A stretch of DNA of 47,126 nt from Pseudomonadota bacterium (lineage in GTDB: Bacteria; Pseudomonadota; Alphaproteobacteria; Geminicoccales; Geminicoccaceae): contig JBCCIN010000001.1 of assembly GCA_039028235.1 (NCBI GenBank), forward strand, positions 1 to 47,126, in the 5' to 3' direction. Made by a program: the position numbers and the translations under genes. The notes under the pieces were generated by a model, which saw only the letters and a program-made list of their open reading frames with translations, did no database searches and was not told the DNA's origin. Below are positions 9,614 to 18,055 of the stretch, in pieces (the stretch's first letter is position 1; the number at the start of each line of letters is the position of its first letter).

Positions 9614-10096
9614 GCCCTATCCTCCAGCGCTCTGCCGATGGCGGACCCGCACATCGATTGGCGAACGCATGACCTACCAGGACACCTCAAGGTTCATGTT
9701 TATTGCGATAAATTTAATTTTTTTTGATGAAACTTTCCCAAAGCGAACCTCGAACGCGAAACGCGGCAAGCGGCCGCCGACCCTCGTTGCCGCTGTGTAG
9801 CCTGGTTTTCTTGGGGTTTTCGAAAAGAAGTTGATGATTGCCGCAATAATTTCGACGGGTTGGGTGTTCATCAGGTCATGGCACATCGATTTCGACAATT
9901 TGCGACAAATACGCTATGATCATGTGGTTTGATATCTGTCATTCGAAGTCGGAAGGTGGCGCTGGTTCGAGGCAGATGATGGCATTGCCTGGCGATGGCG
10001 GGCGGCCGTCAACGTTCGAGACCGCATTTTCGTCTGGCTCGACATTTCACCTCCCCCCGCCGCTCCAGGAACCGGACGGCGATTGTCATAAGCGTG

Positions 10097-10624
10097 ATGC
10101 AGAGCTCGACCAACGGCCAATCCACGGGAATCGAAGACCAGCTGGTCGGCCTCCTGCCGAAGCTCAAGGCGCATGCGCTCTATCTGACCAGGTCGGGCGA
10201 TCGGGCGGACGACCTCCTTCAGCGCACCTGCCTGCGCGCGCTTTCTCGTTCTCATCAATGGCAGGCCGGCACGCGGCTCGATCGCTGGGTTTCGACGATC
10301 ATGAACAGCATCTGGTTCAACGAGCTTCGCCAGAAGCGCCAGCGCCAGGAACAGGAGCTGCCGGAACCCGATATGGTCGCGGATCGCGGCTTCGAGAGCC
10401 AAGTGGAGGCCCAGATCATGATCTCCGACCTCCGGCGCGCCTGCGCCAAGCTCAGCGATGAGGATTTCGCGCTCGTGACCAAGATCCACAGCTATGGTTA
10501 TACTTATAAGGAAGTCGCGGATGAGCTTGGTGTGCCCATCGGCACCGTGCTTTCGCGCGTCTCGCGGGCGAAGGCGATGATCAAGCGTGCCGCGGATGAG
10601 CTCAAACAGGGAGGCGGATCCTGA
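10097..10624 (+). CDS. ECF-type RNA polymerase sigma factor (sigma-70 family, regions 2 and 4)
   Basis: I trimmed the track ORF 9995-10624 to the ATG at 10097 (MQSSTNG...). Region 2-like DDLLQRTCLRAL...WVSTIMNSIWFNELR. Region 4 HTH YKEVADELGVPIGTVLSRVSRAK. Confidence 0.9.
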   Translation: MQSSTNGQSTGIEDQLVGLLPKLKAHALYLTRSGDRADDLLQRTCLRALSRSHQWQAGTRLDRWVSTIMNSIWFNELRQKRQRQEQELPEPDMVADRGFESQVEAQIMISDLRRACAKLSDEDFALVTKIHSYGYTYKEVADELGVPIGTVLSRVSRAKAMIKRAADELKQGGGS

Positions 10625-10626
10625 CG

Positions 10627-12261
10627 ATGTTCGCCGATAGCGGTCTCTCCGACGAGATGGTCGAGAAGATCGTCGCCTTCGTCGATCGCGAAGCAGGGCG
10701 CGATGCGCCGCTGACCGCAGACGACGAGGCGATGGTGCGTCGTCTGATCGCTGATGATCCCGCCGCGCGTGCGCTGGCCGACGAGCTCAGAGCCACCAAT
10801 GCCGGCCTGGACACACTCCTCGACGATGTCGCCGCGGTGGACGTGCCGGAAAATCTGGTCGCGCTGATCCAGGGACATGCCGCAAAGGAGATCGCGGCAC
10901 CGGCGTTCGGCCGGGCGGAGAGCGACGGGGCGGCCGGTCCCGAAGGCCACGTCGTCGACATGCAGCCGCCTGCTGTGCGCCGGCGCAGCTATGGCCCGCT
11001 TGCGGCTGCGGCCTCGATTGCGATGATGATTGCCAGTGGCGCACTTTATCAAGTTTACACCACGTCCGAAGAGGAACGCGCACGTCTGCAGGCGGAGCTG
11101 GCCGCCGCAACCAACGAGACCGACGCCAGCAGCCGGGCACTCGCCGATGCCGAAGCCGAAATCAGGCGCCTTGCCGGCCTAGCCGACCAGGCCTCGACCC
11201 AGCGTCGGGAGACCGCCGATCGGCTCGCCGCCAATGAGGAAGCGATCCAGCAGCTCGAAGTCGAGCGCGCGACCCTCGAAGGTCGTTACGCGGCTCTCGA
11301 AGGCGACCATCAGGCGCTGAACGAGCAGCTGGAGCGTCAGCGCACGTTGATCGCCGATAGCGAAGCCGCGCGCGATCGCGTCGCCGCTGACCTCGCTGAG
11401 GCGCGAGAAACGCTGGCTCTCGCCGAAAGCAGCACCACCGAGGTCGAAACGACACTGACTGCCGAAGTCGAGGATCTCACCGCCAGACTCGATCGGCGCG
11501 AGCAGGAATTGGCAGCGCTGGCCGTCGAGCTCGAGGCAGGCAAGGAGCAATCGAAGAGCGCACGGGCCGGCCTCGCCGAAGCCCAGGGTGAGAAAGAGGC
11601 GCTCGAGCGCCAGCTCACGACTGCCGAAAGCGACAGACAGCAATTGCTGGCCGAGCGCGAGGTGGCAGAACAGGCCGCGTCCTTAGCCGAACAACAGCTC
11701 GCCTCCCTCGAAGCGGCGGTTCAGAATGCGGAATCCCGTCTAGCCACGGTCGCCGCCGGCCTCGCCAGCGCCGAAGCCGGGCGTCGCGAGGCGGTGCAGC
11801 AGGTCGTTGGGCTGGAAGCGGATCTCGCCGCAAGCAGGAGCTGGCTCGGACAGATCGCGCAATATCACCGGGTCTATGCGTCGACCGCCAGGCGCCATTT
11901 GGTCGAGGTCGGCGCCGATGAGCTCGATCATATCCAGAACTGGCTGACCAACATGCTCGAACGCCAGATCCTGGTGCCCGATCTCACGGCATACGGCGTG
12001 ACCTTCGCCGGTGCCCGTCTTCTCGGCATCAATGAAAAGCCCGTTGCCCAGCTCGTCTATCTCGATGCCAACGATCAGCCACTGGCGCTCTGCATCATCC
12101 CGTCGACCGGTGCGGCCAAGAACCCGACAGCCTCCACCAACGGCGAGCTCAACCTGATCGACTGGCGGGATGGACGTCACGGTTACGCCGTGGTCGGCTG
12201 GTCCGACCCCGATCTCCTCGCATCCCTCACCCAGGCGATCCAGCCCGTCTACGACCTATAG
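10627..12261 (+). CDS. membrane anti-sigma factor with a long coiled-coil spacer
   Basis: Starts 2 nt after the sigma factor stop. The N-terminal anti-sigma-like segment is IVAFVD...DDPAARALADELRA...VPENLVALI. TM at about aa 123-143. Heptad-like E/A/L/R-rich stretch at about aa 147-405. The C-terminal domain HRVYAS...HLVEV...WLTNMLERQILVPDL...GARLL is typical of proteobacterial anti-sigma periplasmic domains. Confidence 0.8.
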   Translation: MFADSGLSDEMVEKIVAFVDREAGRDAPLTADDEAMVRRLIADDPAARALADELRATNAGLDTLLDDVAAVDVPENLVALIQGHAAKEIAAPAFGRAESDGAAGPEGHVVDMQPPAVRRRSYGPLAAAASIAMMIASGALYQVYTTSEEERARLQAELAAATNETDASSRALADAEAEIRRLAGLADQASTQRRETADRLAANEEAIQQLEVERATLEGRYAALEGDHQALNEQLERQRTLIADSEAARDRVAADLAEARETLALAESSTTEVETTLTAEVEDLTARLDRREQELAALAVELEAGKEQSKSARAGLAEAQGEKEALERQLTTAESDRQQLLAEREVAEQAASLAEQQLASLEAAVQNAESRLATVAAGLASAEAGRREAVQQVVGLEADLAASRSWLGQIAQYHRVYASTARRHLVEVGADELDHIQNWLTNMLERQILVPDLTAYGVTFAGARLLGINEKPVAQLVYLDANDQPLALCIIPSTGAAKNPTASTNGELNLIDWRDGRHGYAVVGWSDPDLLASLTQAIQPVYDL

Positions 12262-12390: not shown

Positions 12391-13227
12391 CTAGACCTGA
12401 TCGACCGCTTTGGGCGGAGCATCATGCGCTGACTGCAGGACCTCAAGCGCCTCGCGAAGAGCCTGATCATAGTCCGGCAGACCGTGCACGTCGCCATGGC
12501 CGGCGCCGGCGATGGTTCGATCGAAGACCAGCTTCTCCAGGCGTTGCCGCAGCGCCTCGGTTCTTGCCGGACGGATCACCCGATCAAGTTCCGATGCGAT
12601 GATCGCCGTCGGCGTCCGGTTGTCGGCCATGAAGTCGACAGTCGGAAAGCGGTGTTTCAGCAAGAGGCCGACCGGCAGCCACGGATAGGCTTGTTTAGCC
12701 ACGGCCTCGATCGAATCATAAGGCGTCACCAGGATGATGCCGTCGAGCGTCCGCTGTTTCGAAAGATAGCCGGCGATCCCGGAACCGAGCGAAATCCCAA
12801 TCGCGTGAACCGATCGCGGCGCCAGATCCCGAACCAGGCGGTCGTGGATCACGAGCGCATCCGCCAGAAGGGCCACCTCGCTCGGCTTGCCCGAACTTGG
12901 CCCGTAGCCGCGATAATGAAAAACCGCGACATGCCGATCGGCGAAGCTCGCCGCCAGCTCCTGACCCAGCATGTCGGCATCCTGTGCATTGCCGCCGAAC
13001 CCGATCACGAGTCCCTCGGAGGCAGCTTTGCCATCCGGCGCGAACAGGATGCCGCTTAGCCTGACGCCATCGTCCCGCTCGATCTCCAGGCGCGTTGGCA
13101 TGAAAGGGTGATCGAGCGGACGGCTGGGCAGCTTCGTGCCGGGGAAGATCAGCGAGGTCTGGGCGCTATACATCAGCGCGACCAAACAGCCGTAGCCAAG
13201 AGCCAGAACAAGGAGCAGTTTCATCAT
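12391..13227 (-). CDS. alpha/beta hydrolase fold protein
   Basis: I trimmed to the internal ATG (MMKLLLVLALGYG, membrane anchor or signal). Nucleophile elbow GISLGSG; C-terminal GAGHGD histidine motif. Confidence 0.8.
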   Translation of the reverse strand: MMKLLLVLALGYGCLVALMYSAQTSLIFPGTKLPSRPLDHPFMPTRLEIERDDGVRLSGILFAPDGKAASEGLVIGFGGNAQDADMLGQELAASFADRHVAVFHYRGYGPSSGKPSEVALLADALVIHDRLVRDLAPRSVHAIGISLGSGIAGYLSKQRTLDGIILVTPYDSIEAVAKQAYPWLPVGLLLKHRFPTVDFMADNRTPTAIIASELDRVIRPARTEALRQRLEKLVFDRTIAGAGHGDVHGLPDYDQALREALEVLQSAHDAPPKAVDQV

Positions 13228-13400
13228 ATCAGAACGTCGAGAGCATGCCTCACCCACGATCCCTGTCTGACGACAGCGTCCCAGCCGTCCTGCTCCCGAG
13301 CGTAAGCAATCGAGGTAAAAAGAACGTTAACCATGGACAGAAAACGAGCATCTGCCGGAAGCGCGCGGGCCTGCCGTTGAACTGACGCTGGCCACAGTCC

Positions 13401-13928
13401 TCATTGAAGATCCTTCGGTCGGACAAAAGCGTGAAGATAGCCTGAGCCAGGAGCAATGGCCGCCCACCTGTCCATCTCGAAATCGAGCACGGCCAGCGCC
13501 GCGGTCGGATATTTCGCCGCCATGATCACCATGTTCTGCGGATCCCCCTTTGCGGCCAGCCGCATCGCCAGCGTGGCCATGCCGGGGTTGTGACCGATGA
13601 TCATCAGCCGCTCGACGGCATCATCGATCCGCCTGATCGCGGCCAGCATCTCTCCGGGCTGTGCCAGATAGAGCGACGAGCGCATCTCGACCTTGGCCCT
13701 GTCCACAGCCGGCCGCTCCCACTCGGCGATCACAAGCTCCAGCGTCTGGCGCGCCCGTTCGGCCGTCGAGCAGAGCACCAGATCAGGCACCAGACCATGC
13801 CGGCTGATATGGCGGCCGATCAGCGGCGCCGCGCGCCGGCCCCTGGGTGCCAGTGGCCGTGAAGCGTCGTCGAGATCGCCCTGATCCCAGCTCGACTTCG
13901 CATGGCGCAGCAGCAAAAGCCTGCGCAT
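13401..13928 (-). CDS. SixA-type histidine phosphatase family protein
   Basis: I trimmed to the ATG at 13928 (MRRLLLLRHAKSSW, the RHG/RHA phosphatase motif). IGHNPG lies near the C-terminal half. Divergent from ppk. Confidence 0.8.
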   Translation of the reverse strand: MRRLLLLRHAKSSWDQGDLDDASRPLAPRGRRAAPLIGRHISRHGLVPDLVLCSTAERARQTLELVIAEWERPAVDRAKVEMRSSLYLAQPGEMLAAIRRIDDAVERLMIIGHNPGMATLAMRLAAKGDPQNMVIMAAKYPTAALAVLDFEMDRWAAIAPGSGYLHAFVRPKDLQ

Positions 13929-14004
13929 TCCGCTACGTCTCCTCCTCGATCGGCGACCGCCCCTTAATGATCCGTGGTAATCTCCTTGACCCCAAGCGTA
14001 GCCC

Positions 14005-16257
14005 ATGGTGCGATTGAGGGCCATTCCAAGTCTGAAAGGAAAACGTTCGGTGTCAGGGACCGGGACCCTTACGGTAGATCAGGACATCGATCGGAATCCA
14101 TCAAGCAAGGCAAAAGCGTCCATCGAAGGCGAAGTGCCTGTCCTGATCCACTCGCCGAAGCGTTTCTTCAATCGCGAAGCCTCATGGCTTGCCTTCAACG
14201 AACGCGTGTTCGAAGAAGCGAACAACCGCCAATATCCGCTGCTCGAACGCCTGCGCTTCCTTGGCATCTCAGCCGCAATCCTCGATGAATTCACCATGGT
14301 GCGCGTCGCCGGTCTGATGGGACAAGTCTGGGCCGGCGTGAGCACGATCAGTCCCGATGGGCTCAGCCCCGCCGAGCAGCTCAGATTGATCGACGGCCAG
14401 GTCAGCCGGCTCACGGACGAGCAGCAGCGCTGCTGGCAAGCCCTTCGTGCCGAGTTGCGCAACGCCGGGGTCGCGGTGCTCGCCGCCGATGAGCTGACCG
14501 CCAAGGAACGCCGCTGGCTGGAGCGCCACTTCAACGAGCACCTCTTTCCAGTCCTAACACCGATCGCCGTGGAACCGCCGAACCCCTTCCCCTTCATCCC
14601 CAATCTCGGCCTCAGCATGGTGCTCGACCTCTGGCGCGAGCGTGACGACAAGCGGATACACGGCCTGGTGCCGATCCCAGCACCGATCGACCGCTTCGTC
14701 CGCCTGCCCGGCGCAGCGCTTCGCTTCATCGCGATCGAGGACGTCGTGCCTCTCTTCCTGGATCGCCTGTTCCCCGGATTCAACGCCGAGGGGCATGGTG
14801 TCTTCCGTGTGATCCGCGACAGTGACCTCGAAGTCGAGGAAGAGGCCGAGGACCTGGTGCGCCAGTTCGAAAGCGCCATTAAACGCCGGAAACGCGGCTC
14901 CGTCGTCCGCCTCGCCATCGCCGGCCGCATGCCGGGTGATCTCGAAAGCTTCCTGGTGCGCCAGCTTCGGGCAGCACCCGAGAACGTCCACCACATGCAA
15001 GGCATGATCGGGCTTGCCGACGTGCAAACCCTGATCGACGAGCAGCGTCCCGATCTGCAGTTTCCGCCATTCAGCGCGCGCTTTCCGGAGCGCATCCGGG
15101 ACTTCGGAGGCGACTGCTTCGCCGCCATCCGCAACAAGGACATCGTGGTCCACCACCCCTATGAGAGCTTCGACGTGGTGGTGCAGTTCCTGCGCCAGGC
15201 GGCTCACGACGACGACGTGGTGGCGATCAAGCAGACGCTCTACCGCACCAGCAACAACTCGCCGATCATCCAGGCGCTTTGCCAGGCAGCCGAGGCCGGA
15301 AAATCGGTGACCGCCCTCGTTGAGATCAAGGCGCGGTTCGATGAGGAGGCGAACCTTCGCTGGGCCCGTGATCTCGAGCGAAGCGGCGCCCAGGTCGCCT
15401 ATGGCTTCGCCGATCTCAAGACCCACGCCAAGATTTCGCTGGTGGTCAGGCGCGAAAACCAGACCTTGCGCACCTATGTCCACTACGGCACCGGCAACTA
15501 TCACCCGATCACCGCCAAGATCTACACGGACCTCTCGTTTTTCACCTGCAATCAGGCCCTTTGCCAAGACGCGGCGCGCGCCTTCAACTACATGACCGGC
15601 TTCGCCCCGCCGGATCGTCTGGAAGCCCTGGCGCTTGCCCCGGTGACCCTTCGGGACAAGCTCCTGTCGCTGATCGACGACGAAATCGCCCATGCCGAGG
15701 CGGGCCGCCCCGCTGCGATCTGGGCGAAAATGAACTCGCTGCTCGATCCCGACATCATCGACGCGCTCTACAGGGCCTCCGAAGCGGGTGTGGACGTCGA
15801 GCTGATCATCCGCGGCATCTGCTGCCTTCGTCCCCAGGTTCCGGGCCTGTCCGAGCGCATCTGGGTCAAGAGCATCGTCGGACGCTTTTTGGAGCACAGC
15901 CGCATCGTCTGCTTCGGCGCCGGCCACGGCCTGCCCTCGCGCGATGCCAAGATGTTCATCTCGTCAGCGGACTGGATGACCCGGAATTTCGACCGGCGGA
16001 TCGAGACCCTGGTGCCGATCGAGAACCCGACGGTGCATCGCCAGGTGCTCGACCAGATCATGATCGCCAATCTGAAGGACCAGACCAACAGCTGGGAGCT
16101 GATGCCCGACGGCAGCTACCGCCGGCTTGCTGCTGACGCCGAGGCGTTCAGCGCCCATGCCTATTTCATGACAAATCCCAGCCTTTCCGGCCGCGGCAGC
16201 GCCATGAAACGCACCCCGATGCCGCCGATGCTGACCGTCGACGACACCGACATCTAA
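14005..16257 (+). CDS. ppk: polyphosphate kinase 1
   Basis: 750 aa. [16 protein letters not shown]-terminus. Two HKD-like PLD motifs ([13 protein letters not shown] and [10 protein letters not shown]). Confidence 0.95.
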
Positions 16258-16602
16258 CCGCCAGACCACGCCGCCAGCGGGGGATTTTCGTCCAAGTTCA
16301 GGTTTTCTTTAGCGACTCCGTTAGGTCTTCGCTGAAGCTCGGACGTCATATTGCTTCATGATCCATGCGATCCTGAGAATCCGCCCGCCCGTCGAGAGAG
16401 CTCGAGCGAAGCGCAGACTCCCAAGATCACATGGACCGACAAGAAAGGCCGAAAGTTGGCCATGGCGGGTTGAGAAAAAACAAAAAGCGATCTTGATTCT
16501 CAATACATAGGCAGAGACTTTGCCCGGCCGATCTGACAGACCGCGAAGGGCCCGATCAGCCGACAGGGTCCCGACCAGGCAGGCCTCGGTCGGACATGCG
16601 GT

Positions 16603-16634
16603 TAAAAAAAACGCCCGGCGGGTGGGCCGGGCGT
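16603..16634 (-). terminator. intrinsic terminator of the NPC-repeat/P460 gene
   Basis: 9-bp perfect GC stem (16611-16619 ACGCCCGGC with 16626-16634 GCCGGGCGT) and a 6-nt loop. On the minus strand a run of 8 T follows (A-run 16604-16611). It begins 28 nt past the stop at 16663. Confidence 0.75.
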
Positions 16635-16662
16635 TCGAAGTCGGGTTTTTGCGAGTGGATCG

Positions 16663-17841
16663 TCAGTTCGAGGCGCGATATTCCTCGGGCAGGAAGAACA
16701 GATAGTCCTGATCCTCGGCGACCGCAGCGTGACACTCGTTGCAGAATTCGACGGATGCATCGCCAGCACCACCGGTCGCGCCGAACGTGCTGCCGTCGGG
16801 CATGATCATGGTGTATTTCCAGTCACCGCTGGCCTCATTGAAGCCGGGTTCCATCTTCTCCATGAGGAAAAGCGGTCCCAGCGTGACCTTGCCGTTGGCG
16901 CCGACAGAGAAGCTGTCCTTGGCAATCGCCGATCCCACCGGCAGGACGCCCGCCTCCTCATAGTTGATATAGTCAGCGCCGGCACGGTTGCCCCAGTTCA
17001 TGACGTAGCGGCCACCATGGGTGCCCGATGGATAGGGTCCGGTGCTGTAGCGCCACCAGCCCAGATACTTGCCGGCATTGGGATCGTCAGCGACGCCATA
17101 GGCTTCCTGCATGTAGCCCTTGACGCAATCATAGACCTCCAGCGCCTCTGCATCGGTGATCTCGACCGCGCCGCCCGCCGCGCAGGGATTGCACGGGTTG
17201 CAAGGATTGCAGGGGTTGGCGGCACACGGGTTGCAGGGATTCGCGGCGCAGGGATTGCACGGGTTCGCCGCACAAGGGTTGCAGGGATTCGCCGCGCAAG
17301 GATTGCACGGGTTGCAAGGATTACAGGGGCTGCACGGATTCGACGCCGCACAAGGGTTGCACGGGTTCGCCGCACAAGGATTGCAGGGATTCGCGGCGCA
17401 GGGGTTGCACGGGTTGCAAGGATTACAGGGGTTGCACGGATTCGACGCCGCACAGGGGTTGCAAGGATTCGCTGCCGCCAGTCGTGGTATGACACATTCG
17501 GTGGCGCCGGCGGACCCTCCGGCCGCACAAGGATTGCAAGGGTTCGCCGCACACGGGTTGCAGGGGTTCGCGGCGCAGGGATTGCAAGGATTGGGTGCGC
17601 AGGGATTGCAAGGGTTACAGGCGATCGTTCGGACCCCATCAGGAAGCGCGTCCCGGCTGATCGCCTCGGGAAGAACGGTGGAGGCTGCCGGCGCCGCTTT
17701 TGCAGGCCGCACGCTACAAAGGCTAAGGCCCACACCAGTCGCGGCCACGCCAAGTCCCATCACGGCAGACAATACAGTGGTCGATCGGAGCTGCCGCTTC
17801 AAAAGTCGACAGGATGTCTTGAGCTTGGTCGTTGTCATCAT
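16663..17841 (-). CDS. secreted Asn-Pro-Cys repeat protein with a C-terminal cytochrome-P460-like mono-haem domain
   Basis: 392 aa. SD GGGAGGG. N-terminal basic and hydrophobic signal-like region ends AKA-AP. aa 75-222 hold two blocks of NPC triplets. aa about 225-392 are non-repetitive with a single CNECH haem motif about 20 residues from the C-terminus and the motif GDWKY, as in the P460 / cytochrome c-prime-beta family. Confidence 0.85.
17176..17619 (-). repeat. coding tandem repeats: 9-bp (Asn-Pro-Cys) units arranged as NPCNPCAA, in two blocks (17521-17619 and 17176-17478), including a 102-bp tandem duplication (17266-17367 / 17368-17469)
   Basis: Counted by eye in the translation: 8 triplets in block 1 and 26 in block 2 (33 NPC plus 1 SPC). 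The repeats also create long spurious ORFs in other frames and on the opposite strand (for example 17156-17887 +). Confidence 0.9.
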
Positions 17842-18055
17842 TCGCCCTCCCTATCTGAGCGCCTTCCTGATTCTACAATCGGCTTAGTTCGTTACCCGGC
17901 TCCATGGGAGCCGAATCCGCCGACATCGCACACATCTAACAGGCGCCTTGAGGCAATCACGGTCAAATGACCGGCTTTCACAAATTGGTGATGGGCATCA
18001 GGACGGGTTGACCCAAGGGGGGCTATTGCCGGCCGATATGTCCGGCCGTAACGGC

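Follow-up and report, generated by a model that had tools for sequence, protein, structure and literature searches.

An exported cytochrome P460-family haem protein with an array of Asn-Pro-Cys triplets, and the occurrence of such arrays on other haem proteins

A c-type haem protein with a cysteine array

A 47,126-nt stretch of DNA from a Geminicoccaceae bacterium (contig JBCCIN010000001.1), in the following called the window, was found to contain a gene whose product is one Sec-exported c-type haem protein with an N-terminal helix as export signal or anchor. The helix is followed by an array of Asn-Pro-Cys (NPC) triplets and by a mono-haem domain resembling cytochrome P460. We hold this architecture and the family assignment with high confidence: a preliminary description made from the letters of the sequence had proposed an NPC array behind an export signal and, C-terminal to it, a P460-like mono-haem domain with a single CXXCH near its end, and this is supported by Pfam, by fold search and by profile-to-PDB search. 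The same description treated the fusion as a singular oddity. This view had to be given up, as the fusion is the rule, though mis-annotated, in a large alphaproteobacterial clade, and the module occurs mostly on other c-type haem proteins.

The coding sequence, an ORF read from the sequence, is complete (16663..17841 (-), 392 amino acids plus stop codon). The Shine-Dalgarno sequence GGGAGGG is located at 17845..17851 (-), its GGAGG core lying 4 nt before ATG1 and 7 nt before ATG2. About 27 nt past the stop codon follows an intrinsic terminator (16600..16636 (-)) consisting of an 11-bp GC-rich stem (16636-16609) and T8. The claim of an own Shine-Dalgarno sequence and an intrinsic terminator therefore stands, with one terminator present. 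The flanking genes are convergent or separated, which makes the proposed monocistronic gene plausible.

The genomic context of the window and of five relatives revealed neither a conserved partner gene nor metal-resistance genes linked to the array gene; the genes around it have housekeeping functions and vary between genomes. A sox context was not seen either. A sulfide dehydrogenase gene lies close to the array gene of one relative (L001), with no counterpart in the window, and a YeeE-like sulfur transporter gene is found near that of another (L006). A redoxin gene and cytochrome c genes are found in the vicinity of one array protein.

At the N-terminus the export signal or possible signal-anchor (aa 1-49, 17695..17841 (-)) combines a basic n-region with a hydrophobic stretch some 22 residues long; AKA|AP may serve as cleavage site. 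The AlphaFold model of the full-length protein places a helix at aa 4-31. Among relatives the N-terminal motif (K/R)xxL(L/R)STTxxP is kept, and in many of them an AxA cleavage site directly precedes the first Cys of the array. The adjoining non-repetitive segment before the array (aa 50-74, 17620..17694 (-)) is conserved in the Geminicoccaceae-type relatives L001, L003-5, L011 and L012. We did not take up a reading as lipoprotein, since LSLC is no canonical lipobox, yet some relatives carry LSAC or LAAC directly before the array.

The haem domain belongs to the cytochrome P460/c'-beta fold

The C-terminal 170 amino acids (aa 223-392, 16666..17175 (-)) are a cytochrome P460/c'-beta fold domain with a single CNECH haem site, as identified by Pfam, AlphaFold, Foldseek and profile searches against the PDB. 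For the Pfam family PF16694 the window protein reaches 26.7 bits, just short of the cut-off at 27.0 (E 8e-6, covering positions 35-124 of the 125 in the profile), two relatives score above this cut-off (31.6 bits for P0069 and 32.4 bits for P0018), and for P0001, the public gene call in the window, the match is pre-computed in the database. AlphaFold models the haem domain with a pLDDT of 91.8. When this model was compared to the PDB with Foldseek, the top 8 matches were all P460 or c'-beta structures (E 8e-6 to 2.5e-3, probability 1.00), the next match having an E of 0.16; TM values against the P460 structures of Methylococcus capsulatus (Mc) and Nitrosomonas europaea (Ne) ranged from 0.47 to 0.65. 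A divergent family profile (A2) matched 7ead (4.2e-8), 7s5o (1.8e-7) and 9hrk/6hiu (3.5e-5 to 4.8e-5), and more weakly 8gar/2je2 (1.5e-3 to 2.6e-3) and 6hih (7.6e-3). Searching the PDB with the sequence of the single domain or with a profile of close homologues (A1) returned no P460 entry. The P460-like nature of the C-terminal domain claimed beforehand is thus supported by the fold search and the profile-to-PDB matches, with Pfam at 26.7 versus 27 bits.

The haem c attachment motif C367-N-E-C370-H371 was read from the sequence 21 residues from the C-terminal end (16729..16743 (-)), and the Cys and His residues of CXXCH are kept in 80 of the 80 closest loci. The preliminary description had left it to alignment whether the cross-linking position of P460 holds Lys or Phe/Arg; alignment to solved P460 proteins places Lys308 there (16918..16920 (-)). 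K308, within AKDSF, aligns with K78 of McP460, K70 of NeP460, F61 of the Thermus thermophilus (Tt) c'-beta protein TtCP-beta and the Met of NeCP-beta, the residue identities at the cross-link position being taken from Table 2 of PMC11928373 and the offset of the NeP460 numbering being checked via the R44A residue of 8gar. By this alignment K308 is the equivalent of the P460 cross-link Lys. Its column is Lys in all 80 closest loci and in 128 of 146 representatives; the remaining 18, which are more distant, show M, T, E, A or L at this place.

Other pocket positions match in part. K329 is conserved and corresponds to Mc K106 and Ne K100. The distal catalytic carboxylate that accepts protons (Ne Glu96, Mc Asp102) lies four residues before this conserved Lys in Ne, Mc and Tt; the same position in the window protein is the invariant Phe325, and HMMER pairs the near-invariant Glu328 with Ne Glu96 by opening a gap. 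The column of the distal capping residue, which is Arg50 in Mc and Phe in others, is Val280 at the site of Mc Arg50/Ne Arg44, with an invariant Arg278 two residues upstream. The first helix of the domain also contains a lone extra cysteine, Cys239 (17125..17127 (-)), which is Cys in 78 of the 80 closest loci. The two loci without it are the same two that are without array.

With the cytochromes P460 of M. capsulatus (6hiu, 9hrk) and N. europaea (2je2/2je3, 8gar) the window protein shares the beta-sheet mono-haem fold, the C-terminal CXXCH and a Lys at the cross-link position. It differs from them in that the domain is only 15-22% identical, possesses an extra N-terminal helix pair, has Phe325 at the Lys-minus-4 position with Glu328 close by, and is preceded by a 150-aa Cys array. 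The hosts differ as well, being a heterotrophic-type alphaproteobacterium in the one case and a methanotroph and a nitrifier in the other. The best fold and profile matches are cytochromes c'-beta (T. thermophilus 7ead, N. europaea 7s5o, M. capsulatus 6hih), led by 7ead with 7.9e-6 in Foldseek and 4.2e-8 in the profile search. These proteins have Phe or Met at the position of Lys308, which puts the window protein on the P460 side of the divide. If Phe325 fills the carboxylate site, it may be of the same type as the P460 of Nitrosomonas sp. AL212 (6amg), described as a 'halfway house'; 6amg, however, has no array and its sequence match is weak (E 0.45).

The array and its translation

Counting gave 33 NPC triplets and one SPC triplet in the 392-aa protein. 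The previously claimed total of 34 was therefore correct, the statement that all are NPC was not. The division into two blocks of 8 and 26 triplets was reproduced. Block 1 (aa 75-107, 17521..17619 (-)) contains 8 NPC triplets located at aa 76-105, and block 2 (aa 122-222, 17176..17478 (-)) contains 25 NPC and the one SPC at aa 125-220. Between them lies a linker of 14 aa (aa 108-121, 17479..17520 (-)) with the conserved motif C-[VIY]-[VI]-P-[RSG]-[LVI], which we found again in most array-bearing P460 relatives as well as in LysM-array proteins. Tandem Repeats Finder detected periods of 9, 24, 48 and 102 nt in the array DNA. Within block 2 a 102-nt internal duplication (aa 134-167 versus aa 168-201) differs at 12 of 102 nt.

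The region aa 75-222 is composed almost wholly of C (36), P (36), N (33) and A (30), far beyond chance, and is devoid of His, Met and aromatic residues. Its 36 cysteines, out of 41 in the whole protein, make up 24% of the 148 residues. No fold is predicted for the array: in the full-length AlphaFold model pLDDT is below 50 over aa 34-211 and the array has no secondary structure, so that the model cannot discriminate between mechanisms. The 33 NPC units are encoded by 10 different 9-mers in which all variation falls on codon position 3. Selection at the level of the protein sequence maintains the array.

The public gene call in the window comprises only the last 149 aa of the 392-aa ORF (P0001), and gene callers generally shorten array-bearing P460 genes to about 150-167 aa with loss of the signal peptide. 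We therefore considered whether the repeat region might be untranslated, i.e. an artefact or non-coding repeat, with the 149-aa domain as the true gene or an antisense ORF as the real one. Internal start codons chosen by gene callers (149 aa for P0001, 146-167 aa for P0002, P0006 and P0078), antisense ORFs called across the array and frameshifts within the array in some assemblies (P0007, P0121) would fit such a reading. It is effectively refuted by the repeat-unit variation, which is synonymous in the long frame only, by an uninterrupted, collinear long frame in dozens of independent genomes, isolates among them, and by the Shine-Dalgarno sequence preceding the ATG of the long ORF. The short form has no signal peptide, and haem c attachment would fail; as a c-type cytochrome needs a signal peptide and the long ORF alone supplies it, this too supports the long ORF. 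The two antisense ORFs of the window, 16729..17970 (+) and 17156..17887 (+), were ruled out by the codon-position-3 variation together with the open frame in relatives.

In-frame arrays are also present in the independent assemblies L001-L005. All but two of the 80 closest species genomes with complete upstream region have an array, of up to 56 NPC, before the P460-type domain, and the carriers include chromosome-level MAGs of complete sequence as well as cultured Sneathiella, Pelagibius and Rhodovibrionaceae strains. The preliminary description had named absence or frame disruption of the repeat in independent assemblies as a sign of an assembly artefact; an intact reading frame across the array in many such assemblies, and in isolate genomes, speaks against one. 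Any expression or modelling work on the annotated form of about 150-167 aa is a study of a truncated protein.

Distribution of NPC arrays

Relatives of the P460-family protein are encoded in 507 of the scanned species genomes and amount to 1081 cluster representatives at 50% identity. Between relatives the array is hypervariable in length, and its presence is the rule in this alphaproteobacterial clade. Arrays of this kind are attached to many other proteins of the periplasm, with c-type cytochromes foremost among them: 1180 proteins match the array at E<=1e-3, and among the matches listed (120 of the 1180) 67 carry PF21342, the SoxA/TsdA-type cytochrome c. CxxCH is present in 75 of the 118 array proteins that were newly found among these 120 best matches, and 96 of the 118 have arrays in both halves of the protein. 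The repeats in the C-terminal half are mostly free C-terminal tails of SoxA-like cytochromes. YceI, LysM and DM13 domains, a small beta domain and loops of membrane proteins also carry arrays. In P0247 arrays separate a LysM peptidoglycan-binding domain from the P460 domain, and in P0363 and P0247 arrays are inserted in loops of the P460 domain itself, adjoining the Lys strand.

Some repeat variants keep the Cys pairs and swap N and P (KCGAC in P0243, CAPC in L078, CGAC in L019 and L044), and across phyla the conservation of Asn and Pro comes close to that of Cys. The number of cysteines is odd in 33 proteins and even in 32, i.e. parity is random, which argues against an obligatory scaffold of fully paired disulfides.

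Searches of the literature and the PDB yielded no paper and no solved structure for an NPC array, in agreement with the earlier statement that no characterised function is known. Literature searches for periplasmic metallothioneins, for P460 with a cysteine-rich repeat and for the repeat strings found nothing biological. No PDB sequence similar to the array was obtained at E<=10, and in the window protein Pfam and NCBIfam gave no match other than P460 at E<=1, including none to a metallothionein or thioredoxin family. Read from the sequence, the repeat fits neither the formylglycine-enzyme motif CxPxR nor N-glycosylation sequons.

Possible functions of the array

The array probably works through its thiols. 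Cys is the one residue kept in every repeat variant (CNPC, CSPC, CGPC, CAPC, CGAC), and this, together with the frequent free tails, points to a thiol role. The preliminary description had put forward a metallothionein-like sponge, an NO buffer and an electron relay as hypothetical functions. Our best overall explanation, put forward tentatively, is that the array on this P460-type haem protein is a flexible, high-capacity thiolate tail that would catch soft ligands in the periplasm. Its CxxC pairs would bind soft metal ions such as Cu(I), Zn, Cd and Hg in the fashion of metallothioneins; specific binding of soft metals is the leading candidate function, to which we give slightly less credence than to the explanation as a whole. 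Because the tail leaves the translocon ahead of the C-terminal CXXCH, it could protect haem attachment against thiophilic metals, and at a later stage it could act as a metal buffer beside the open-pocket haem. In a copI mutant, c-type cytochrome assembly is impaired by periplasmic copper (PMC4600104). For the haem domain, binding or oxidation of small N-oxides (NH2OH, NO) is predicted by analogy with P460 proteins. The array shares with metallothioneins the trait of being Cys-rich without aromatic residues or His, and matches no described metallothionein family in Pfam or NCBIfam. Several points speak against the metal reading, among them the lack of linked metal-resistance genes noted above. 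The periplasm is oxidising, and DsbA is expected to close CxxC pairs into disulfides unless bound metal or active reduction prevents it; for Cu(I), sites in the periplasm usually employ Met and His in place of Cys. The conservation of Asn and Pro goes beyond the needs of plain thiolate chelation and hints at a defined local turn or at recognition by another protein. Finally, the long, conserved hydrophobic N-terminus could be an uncleaved anchor, in which case the array would be a tether.

Such a tether, a stiff and protease-resistant stalk stapled by disulfides of CxxC loops whose thiols have no ligand role, would hold the haem domain off the uncleaved membrane anchor or join domains. The hydrophobic stretch of about 22 residues or more is conserved (LLSTTxxP...G.G) and unlike ordinary signal peptides, arrays link LysM and P460 domains in P0247, a Pro/Ala-rich composition with rapid length change is typical of linkers, the AlphaFold model shows no array fold, and PT-repeat linkers between the haem domains of Geobacter PgcA provide an analogue (PMC10570954). 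We nevertheless regard a mere stalk as rather unlikely, given that in 96 of the 118 best array proteins repeats are also found in the C-terminal half, mostly as free SoxA-like tails that join nothing, that many relatives have an AxA cleavage site directly before the first array Cys, that the number of cysteines is odd in half of the proteins and that a spacer has no need of an invariant Cys. A role as redox reservoir, in which 17-18 CxxC pairs would cycle between dithiol and disulfide and feed a low-potential haem or scavenge H2O2, HOCl or HNO, appears very unlikely to us. CNPC does resemble the CxPC sites of thioredoxins, one array protein has redoxin and cytochrome c genes in its vicinity, and the haem potentials of P460 and c'-beta (-200 to -420 mV; PMC11928373, Table 3) are in the range of peptide disulfides. 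Against this, the array has no thioredoxin fold and no Pfam match, its pLDDT is below 50, and no linked reductase is present. We know of no precedent for exchange between a one-electron haem and a two-electron disulfide within one chain.

The array could also be a covalent carrier or nucleophile arm, a multiplied version of the SoxY type, with the haem domain oxidatively joining a small molecule to the cysteines. For P460, a thiolate would attack the electrophilic ferric-nitrosyl intermediate to give an S-nitrosothiol and then a disulfide plus N2O or HNO; on SoxA/TsdA-like partners, thiosulfate or sulfane sulfur would be joined as S-S. Most arrays sit on a SoxA/TsdA-type cytochrome c (67 of 120, among the matches listed) or on P460, both of them catalytic, open-pocket haems and not simple electron carriers. 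The {FeNO}6 intermediate of P460 is indeed attacked by a nucleophile, a second NH2OH (PMC11928373). Arrays in P460 loops beside the Lys strand (P0363, P0247), the co-occurrence of Cys239 with arrays, and the sulfide dehydrogenase and YeeE-like transporter genes near L001 and L006 likewise favour a carrier. The sulfur-gene neighbours, however, are not conserved and are absent from the window, and arrays on YceI, LysM, DM13, the small beta domain and membrane-protein loops have no haem chemistry at hand. To our knowledge a carrier with dozens of arms is without precedent. Altogether we consider this reading unlikely, and quite unlikely in its general form, in which NPC arrays would be multivalent swinging-arm Cys carriers on catalytic c-type haems, loaded oxidatively with substrate, either by NH2OH/NO to give S-nitroso adducts or by sulfur compounds to give thiosulfonate or persulfide.

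Comparison with known cysteine and repeat proteins

Among Cys-based metal proteins are the metallothioneins SmtA/BmtA and the periplasmic copper-storage protein Csp1, the latter being a folded four-helix bundle for Cys-based Cu(I) storage outside the cytoplasm. The array resembles metallothioneins in its 24% Cys, its CxxC spacing, the lack of aromatic residues and His, its disorder without ligand and its variable number of sites. It has no sequence relation to metallothioneins or Csp1, and differs from them by its strict Asn-Pro-Cys tripeptide, its export to an oxidising compartment and its fusion to an enzyme. SoxY bears a single flexible GGCGG cysteine on a folded carrier protein and works with SoxAX. 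The resemblance lies in the cysteine arm acting with a SoxA-type haem, as among the matches listed most NPC arrays are on SoxA/TsdA-like domains; unlike SoxY, the arrays have dozens of Cys and are fused to the haem protein itself. PgcA of Geobacter sulfurreducens, described as 'hemes on a string', likewise combines mono-haem c domains with Pro-rich low-complexity tandem repeats (PMC10570954). These repeats, in contrast to the array, are Pro-Thr, contain no Cys and are situated between haem domains, and PgcA is extracellular (PMC10570954).

Implications

More than 1000 protein clusters in several phyla carry the NPC array, which makes it a widespread, selected and uncharacterised periplasmic module with a strong association to covalently bound haem. 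At the same time a large, mostly marine clade of Lys-type P460-family proteins lies outside the nitrifiers and methanotrophs. Cultured carriers (Sneathiella chungangensis, S. litorea, S. sedimenti and Pelagibius sp. Alg239-R121) make direct testing possible. Metal binding by the array would make it a metallothionein located in the periplasm and fused to an enzyme. Were the carrier reading true, one polypeptide would be both enzyme and high-capacity covalent sink, and there would be an unrecognised periplasmic NO/HNO or sulfur route in marine Alphaproteobacteria, Nitrospinota, Methylomirabilales and others. An array carrying NO or sulfur adducts would represent a new way of combining enzyme and carrier, of relevance to the cycling of N2O/NO and of sulfur.

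Gene structure and coding evidence

The array gene lies at 16663..17841 on the minus strand and forms an ORF of 392 aa. Its translation shows 8 triplets over aa 75-107 (block 1) and 26 over aa 122-222 (block 2), with a 14-residue linker (aa 108-121) in between. The total of 34 Asn-Pro-Cys (NPC) triplets and the two blocks given in the preliminary description are thus correct, except that direct counting yields 33 NPC and one SPC. The region aa 75-222 consists of 36 Cys, 36 Pro, 33 Asn and 30 Ala with little besides, while the C-terminal 170 aa are free of repeats and carry CNECH at aa 367-371. A ribosome-binding site (GGGAGGG, 17845-17851, minus strand) and a terminator (11-bp GC-rich hairpin followed by T8, 16636-16609, minus strand) bracket the ORF, in agreement with its earlier description as a self-contained gene.

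All differences among the 33 NPC units fall on codon position 3: ten distinct 9-mers, using AAC/AAT for Asn, CCT/CCC/CCG for Pro and TGC/TGT for Cys, encode one tripeptide. This confinement to third positions means that selection acts on the peptide read in this frame; neither homogenisation at the DNA level nor a non-coding repeat accounts for it. A 102-nt duplication inside block 2 (aa 134-167 against aa 168-201, 12 of 102 nt differing) shows how the array grows.

The public gene call in the window (P0001) covers only the last 149 aa. In relatives, gene callers likewise pick internal start codons and call an antisense ORF over the array. Stop-free antisense ORFs over the GC-rich array are found in the window at 16729-17970 (+) and 17156-17887 (+), and in the related loci L003 (5262-5897, -), L004 (5247-5978, -) and L005 (3443-4123, -). 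Those annotated in relatives are 211-243 aa long, accompany a shortened true gene and have no Pfam match. The RefSeq protein of Sneathiella chungangensis (P0078) is a leaderless fragment of 164 aa. Haem is attached to c-type cytochromes in the periplasm, and therefore this form cannot mature as one.

The order P460 gene, ppk, histidine phosphatase and alpha/beta hydrolase (window 12391-16257) is shared with L001 (6576-10382), the locus of an 81%-identical relative in which ppk is called as two pieces; it was not found in the Geminicoccales MAGs L003-L005. An ECF-type sigma factor gene (9995-10624, +) is directly followed by a 544-aa ORF (10627-12261, +). This ORF matches no Pfam family; its one match, a weak one, is coiled-coil-like (myosin-tail), and it may encode an anti-sigma factor.

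Distribution of the array among close relatives

We re-read five close loci as DNA from ENA, Logan, JGI and NCBI. All five contain a single continuous frame with 24-27 NPC triplets and share one layout, in which leader and pre-array segment are followed by block 1, GATECVVPRL, block 2 and the haem domain. When one genome per species was scanned, relatives were detected in 507 genomes, the top match being a Geminicoccaceae MAG with 91% identity. For the best 80 of these loci the upstream frame was reconstructed. Among those with complete upstream sequence, arrays are missing only from Kiloniella laminariae and Pelagibius litoralis; most of the others contain 10-56 triplets. Carriers include chromosome-level (complete-sequence) MAGs and the cultured strains S. 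chungangensis (17 triplets), S. litorea (19), S. sedimenti (15), Pelagibius sp. Alg239-R121 (42) and Rhodovibrionaceae A322 (40). The 34 triplets of the window are therefore mid-range, and the fusion is no singular oddity but the rule in this clade. With synonymous-only unit variation and in-frame arrays in independent genomes, cultured strains included, we rejected an artefact; the array is neither absent nor frame-disrupted in the five close loci.

The longest array (56 NPC, upstream at L082) is broken three times by a second repeat, SGDSGMIQLA(SASALIQLA)Q, showing that some lineages have a higher-order repeat structure. Helix 1 of the haem domain has a single cysteine, Cys239 (17125-17127), which all 78 array-bearing close relatives keep and which is missing only in the two without array. 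It may provide a disulfide or metal link between array and haem domain.

The haem domain belongs to the P460 family

The window protein scores 26.7 bits against Pfam Cytochrome_P460, 0.3 under the cut-off, which the tested relatives clear. PDB searches with the single sequence or a close-homologue profile gave no match. The AlphaFold model of the domain (pLDDT 91.8) matches exclusively P460 or c'-beta structures among its eight best PDB hits (including 7ead, 9hrk, 6hiu, 7s5o, 2je2, 8gar and 6e0z), with probability 1.00 each and a clear gap before the next match. A divergent profile of 35 family members found the same proteins by sequence (7ead 4e-8 down to 6hih 8e-3). The proposed P460-like domain is hence borne out: it adds a divergent member to a known family. 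The family of its relatives is large, with 1081 cluster representatives at E<=1e-3.

In the divergent-profile alignments Lys308 (AKDSF) corresponds to Lys78 of Methylococcus capsulatus P460 and Lys70 of Nitrosomonas europaea P460 (offset verified via the R44A residue of 8gar), to Phe61 of Thermus thermophilus c'-beta and to Met of N. europaea c'-beta. The P460 lysines mark the haem cross-link position (2025 review, Table 2, PMC11928373). This column, singled out for inspection in the preliminary description, is Lys in 80/80 close loci and 128/146 representatives; by this residue the predicted protein is P460-type, not c'-beta-type. A second determinant, the proton-accepting carboxylate, sits in the Nitrosomonas, Methylococcus and Thermus proteins four residues ahead of a conserved Lys (K329 here), a position taken in the window protein by the invariant Phe325; HMMER pairs the near-invariant Glu328 with N. 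europaea Glu96 via an opened gap. Given this ambiguity, the protein may be an NH2OH oxidase or, alternatively, belong to the "halfway-house" P460 type, as the inactive AL212 protein does.

More distant family members have no array or different N-terminal domains. Judged by eye, the N-terminal regions of the array-less P0351 and P0346 (both TIR-like), P0313 (caspase-like) and P0261 (adenylate-cyclase-like) look like those of membrane-anchored sensory proteins. In two proteins the array is inserted within the P460 domain: in P0363 (710 aa; the gene may be chimeric or broken) it separates the AKDSF Lys strand from GPLFIMEKM, and in P0247 (481 aa, also with a LysM domain) it lies between the two N-terminal helices.

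The array is a module of several protein families

Searching with the array only, we obtained 1180 proteins at E<=1e-3. Among the best 120, 67 contain a SoxA/TsdA-type cytochrome c domain (NCBI name "cytochrome c peroxidase"), in most cases with an array at either end, and six are P460 proteins. Other partners in this set are YceI, LysM and DM13 domains, membrane-protein loops and a small unassigned beta domain (Nitrospinota, Methylomirabilales). Of the 118 newly found proteins in it, CxxCH occurs in 75, and in 96 the repeats extend to both halves. Among the phyla represented are Alpha- and Gammaproteobacteria, Myxococcota, Nitrospinota and Methylomirabilales. In P0122-P0238 and the loci L007 (7001-7783) and L009 (6001-6720), NPC/NPCAAK arrays flank a SoxA/TsdA-like mono-haem cytochrome c of ~250 aa or, in Nitrospinota-type genomes, the small beta domain (~240 aa); both gene types are close to other cytochrome c genes.

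Unit variants in the P460 clade (CNPC, CSPC, CGPC, CAPC in L078, CGAC/KCGAC in P0243, L019 and L044) all retain the cysteines. The leader (K/R)xxLLSTTxxP and the inter-block motif C-[VIY]-[VI]-P-[RSG]-[LVI] recur in LysM-array proteins, which suggests common descent of the N-terminal module and not convergence of low-complexity sequence. AlphaFold gave no structure for aa 34-211, a PDB sequence search with the array found nothing similar, and a search of the accessible literature for the repeat strings found no paper. The array is without characterised counterpart.

Possible function of the array

The array forms a tail that is exported, dense in Cys and without predicted fold; it varies in length, is under protein-level selection and is preferentially attached to c-type haem domains. 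We infer that it works via thiols. Our tentative first choice is capture of soft metals, because the array is metallothionein-like in composition, is dominated by CxxC pairs and varies in length like a capacity trait. Many arrays are moreover free tails linking nothing, a further reason for ranking it ahead of a disulfide-stapled tether from an uncleaved anchor, which we regard as unlikely; an obligatory disulfide ladder is also improbable since odd and even Cys counts are about equally frequent. Periplasmic copper impairs c-type cytochrome assembly (PMC4600104). An N-terminal chelating tail would exit the translocon ahead of the C-terminal CXXCH and could so protect the haem-attachment step from copper.

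Several points count against soft-metal capture. The conservation of Asn-Pro almost equals that of Cys, the periplasm is oxidising, and no metal genes are linked to the array gene in the neighbourhoods of the window and relatives; the neighbours (ppk, histidine phosphatase, hydrolase, serine dehydratase, polysaccharide genes) differ between relatives. Somewhat less probable still than the tether is an arm that serves as covalent carrier or nucleophile while the haem catalyses the formation of S-N or S-S bonds, and least of all we favour a dithiol/disulfide reservoir. Metallothioneins and Csp1, the SoxY arm and the Pro-Thr linkers of PgcA (PMC10570954) come nearest to it, as functional analogies only; when tested, the array belonged to neither the metallothionein nor a thioredoxin-like family.

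The array represents a module that is widespread, unstudied and mis-annotated and that sits on an enzyme family of biogeochemical relevance; its cultured hosts make direct tests possible.
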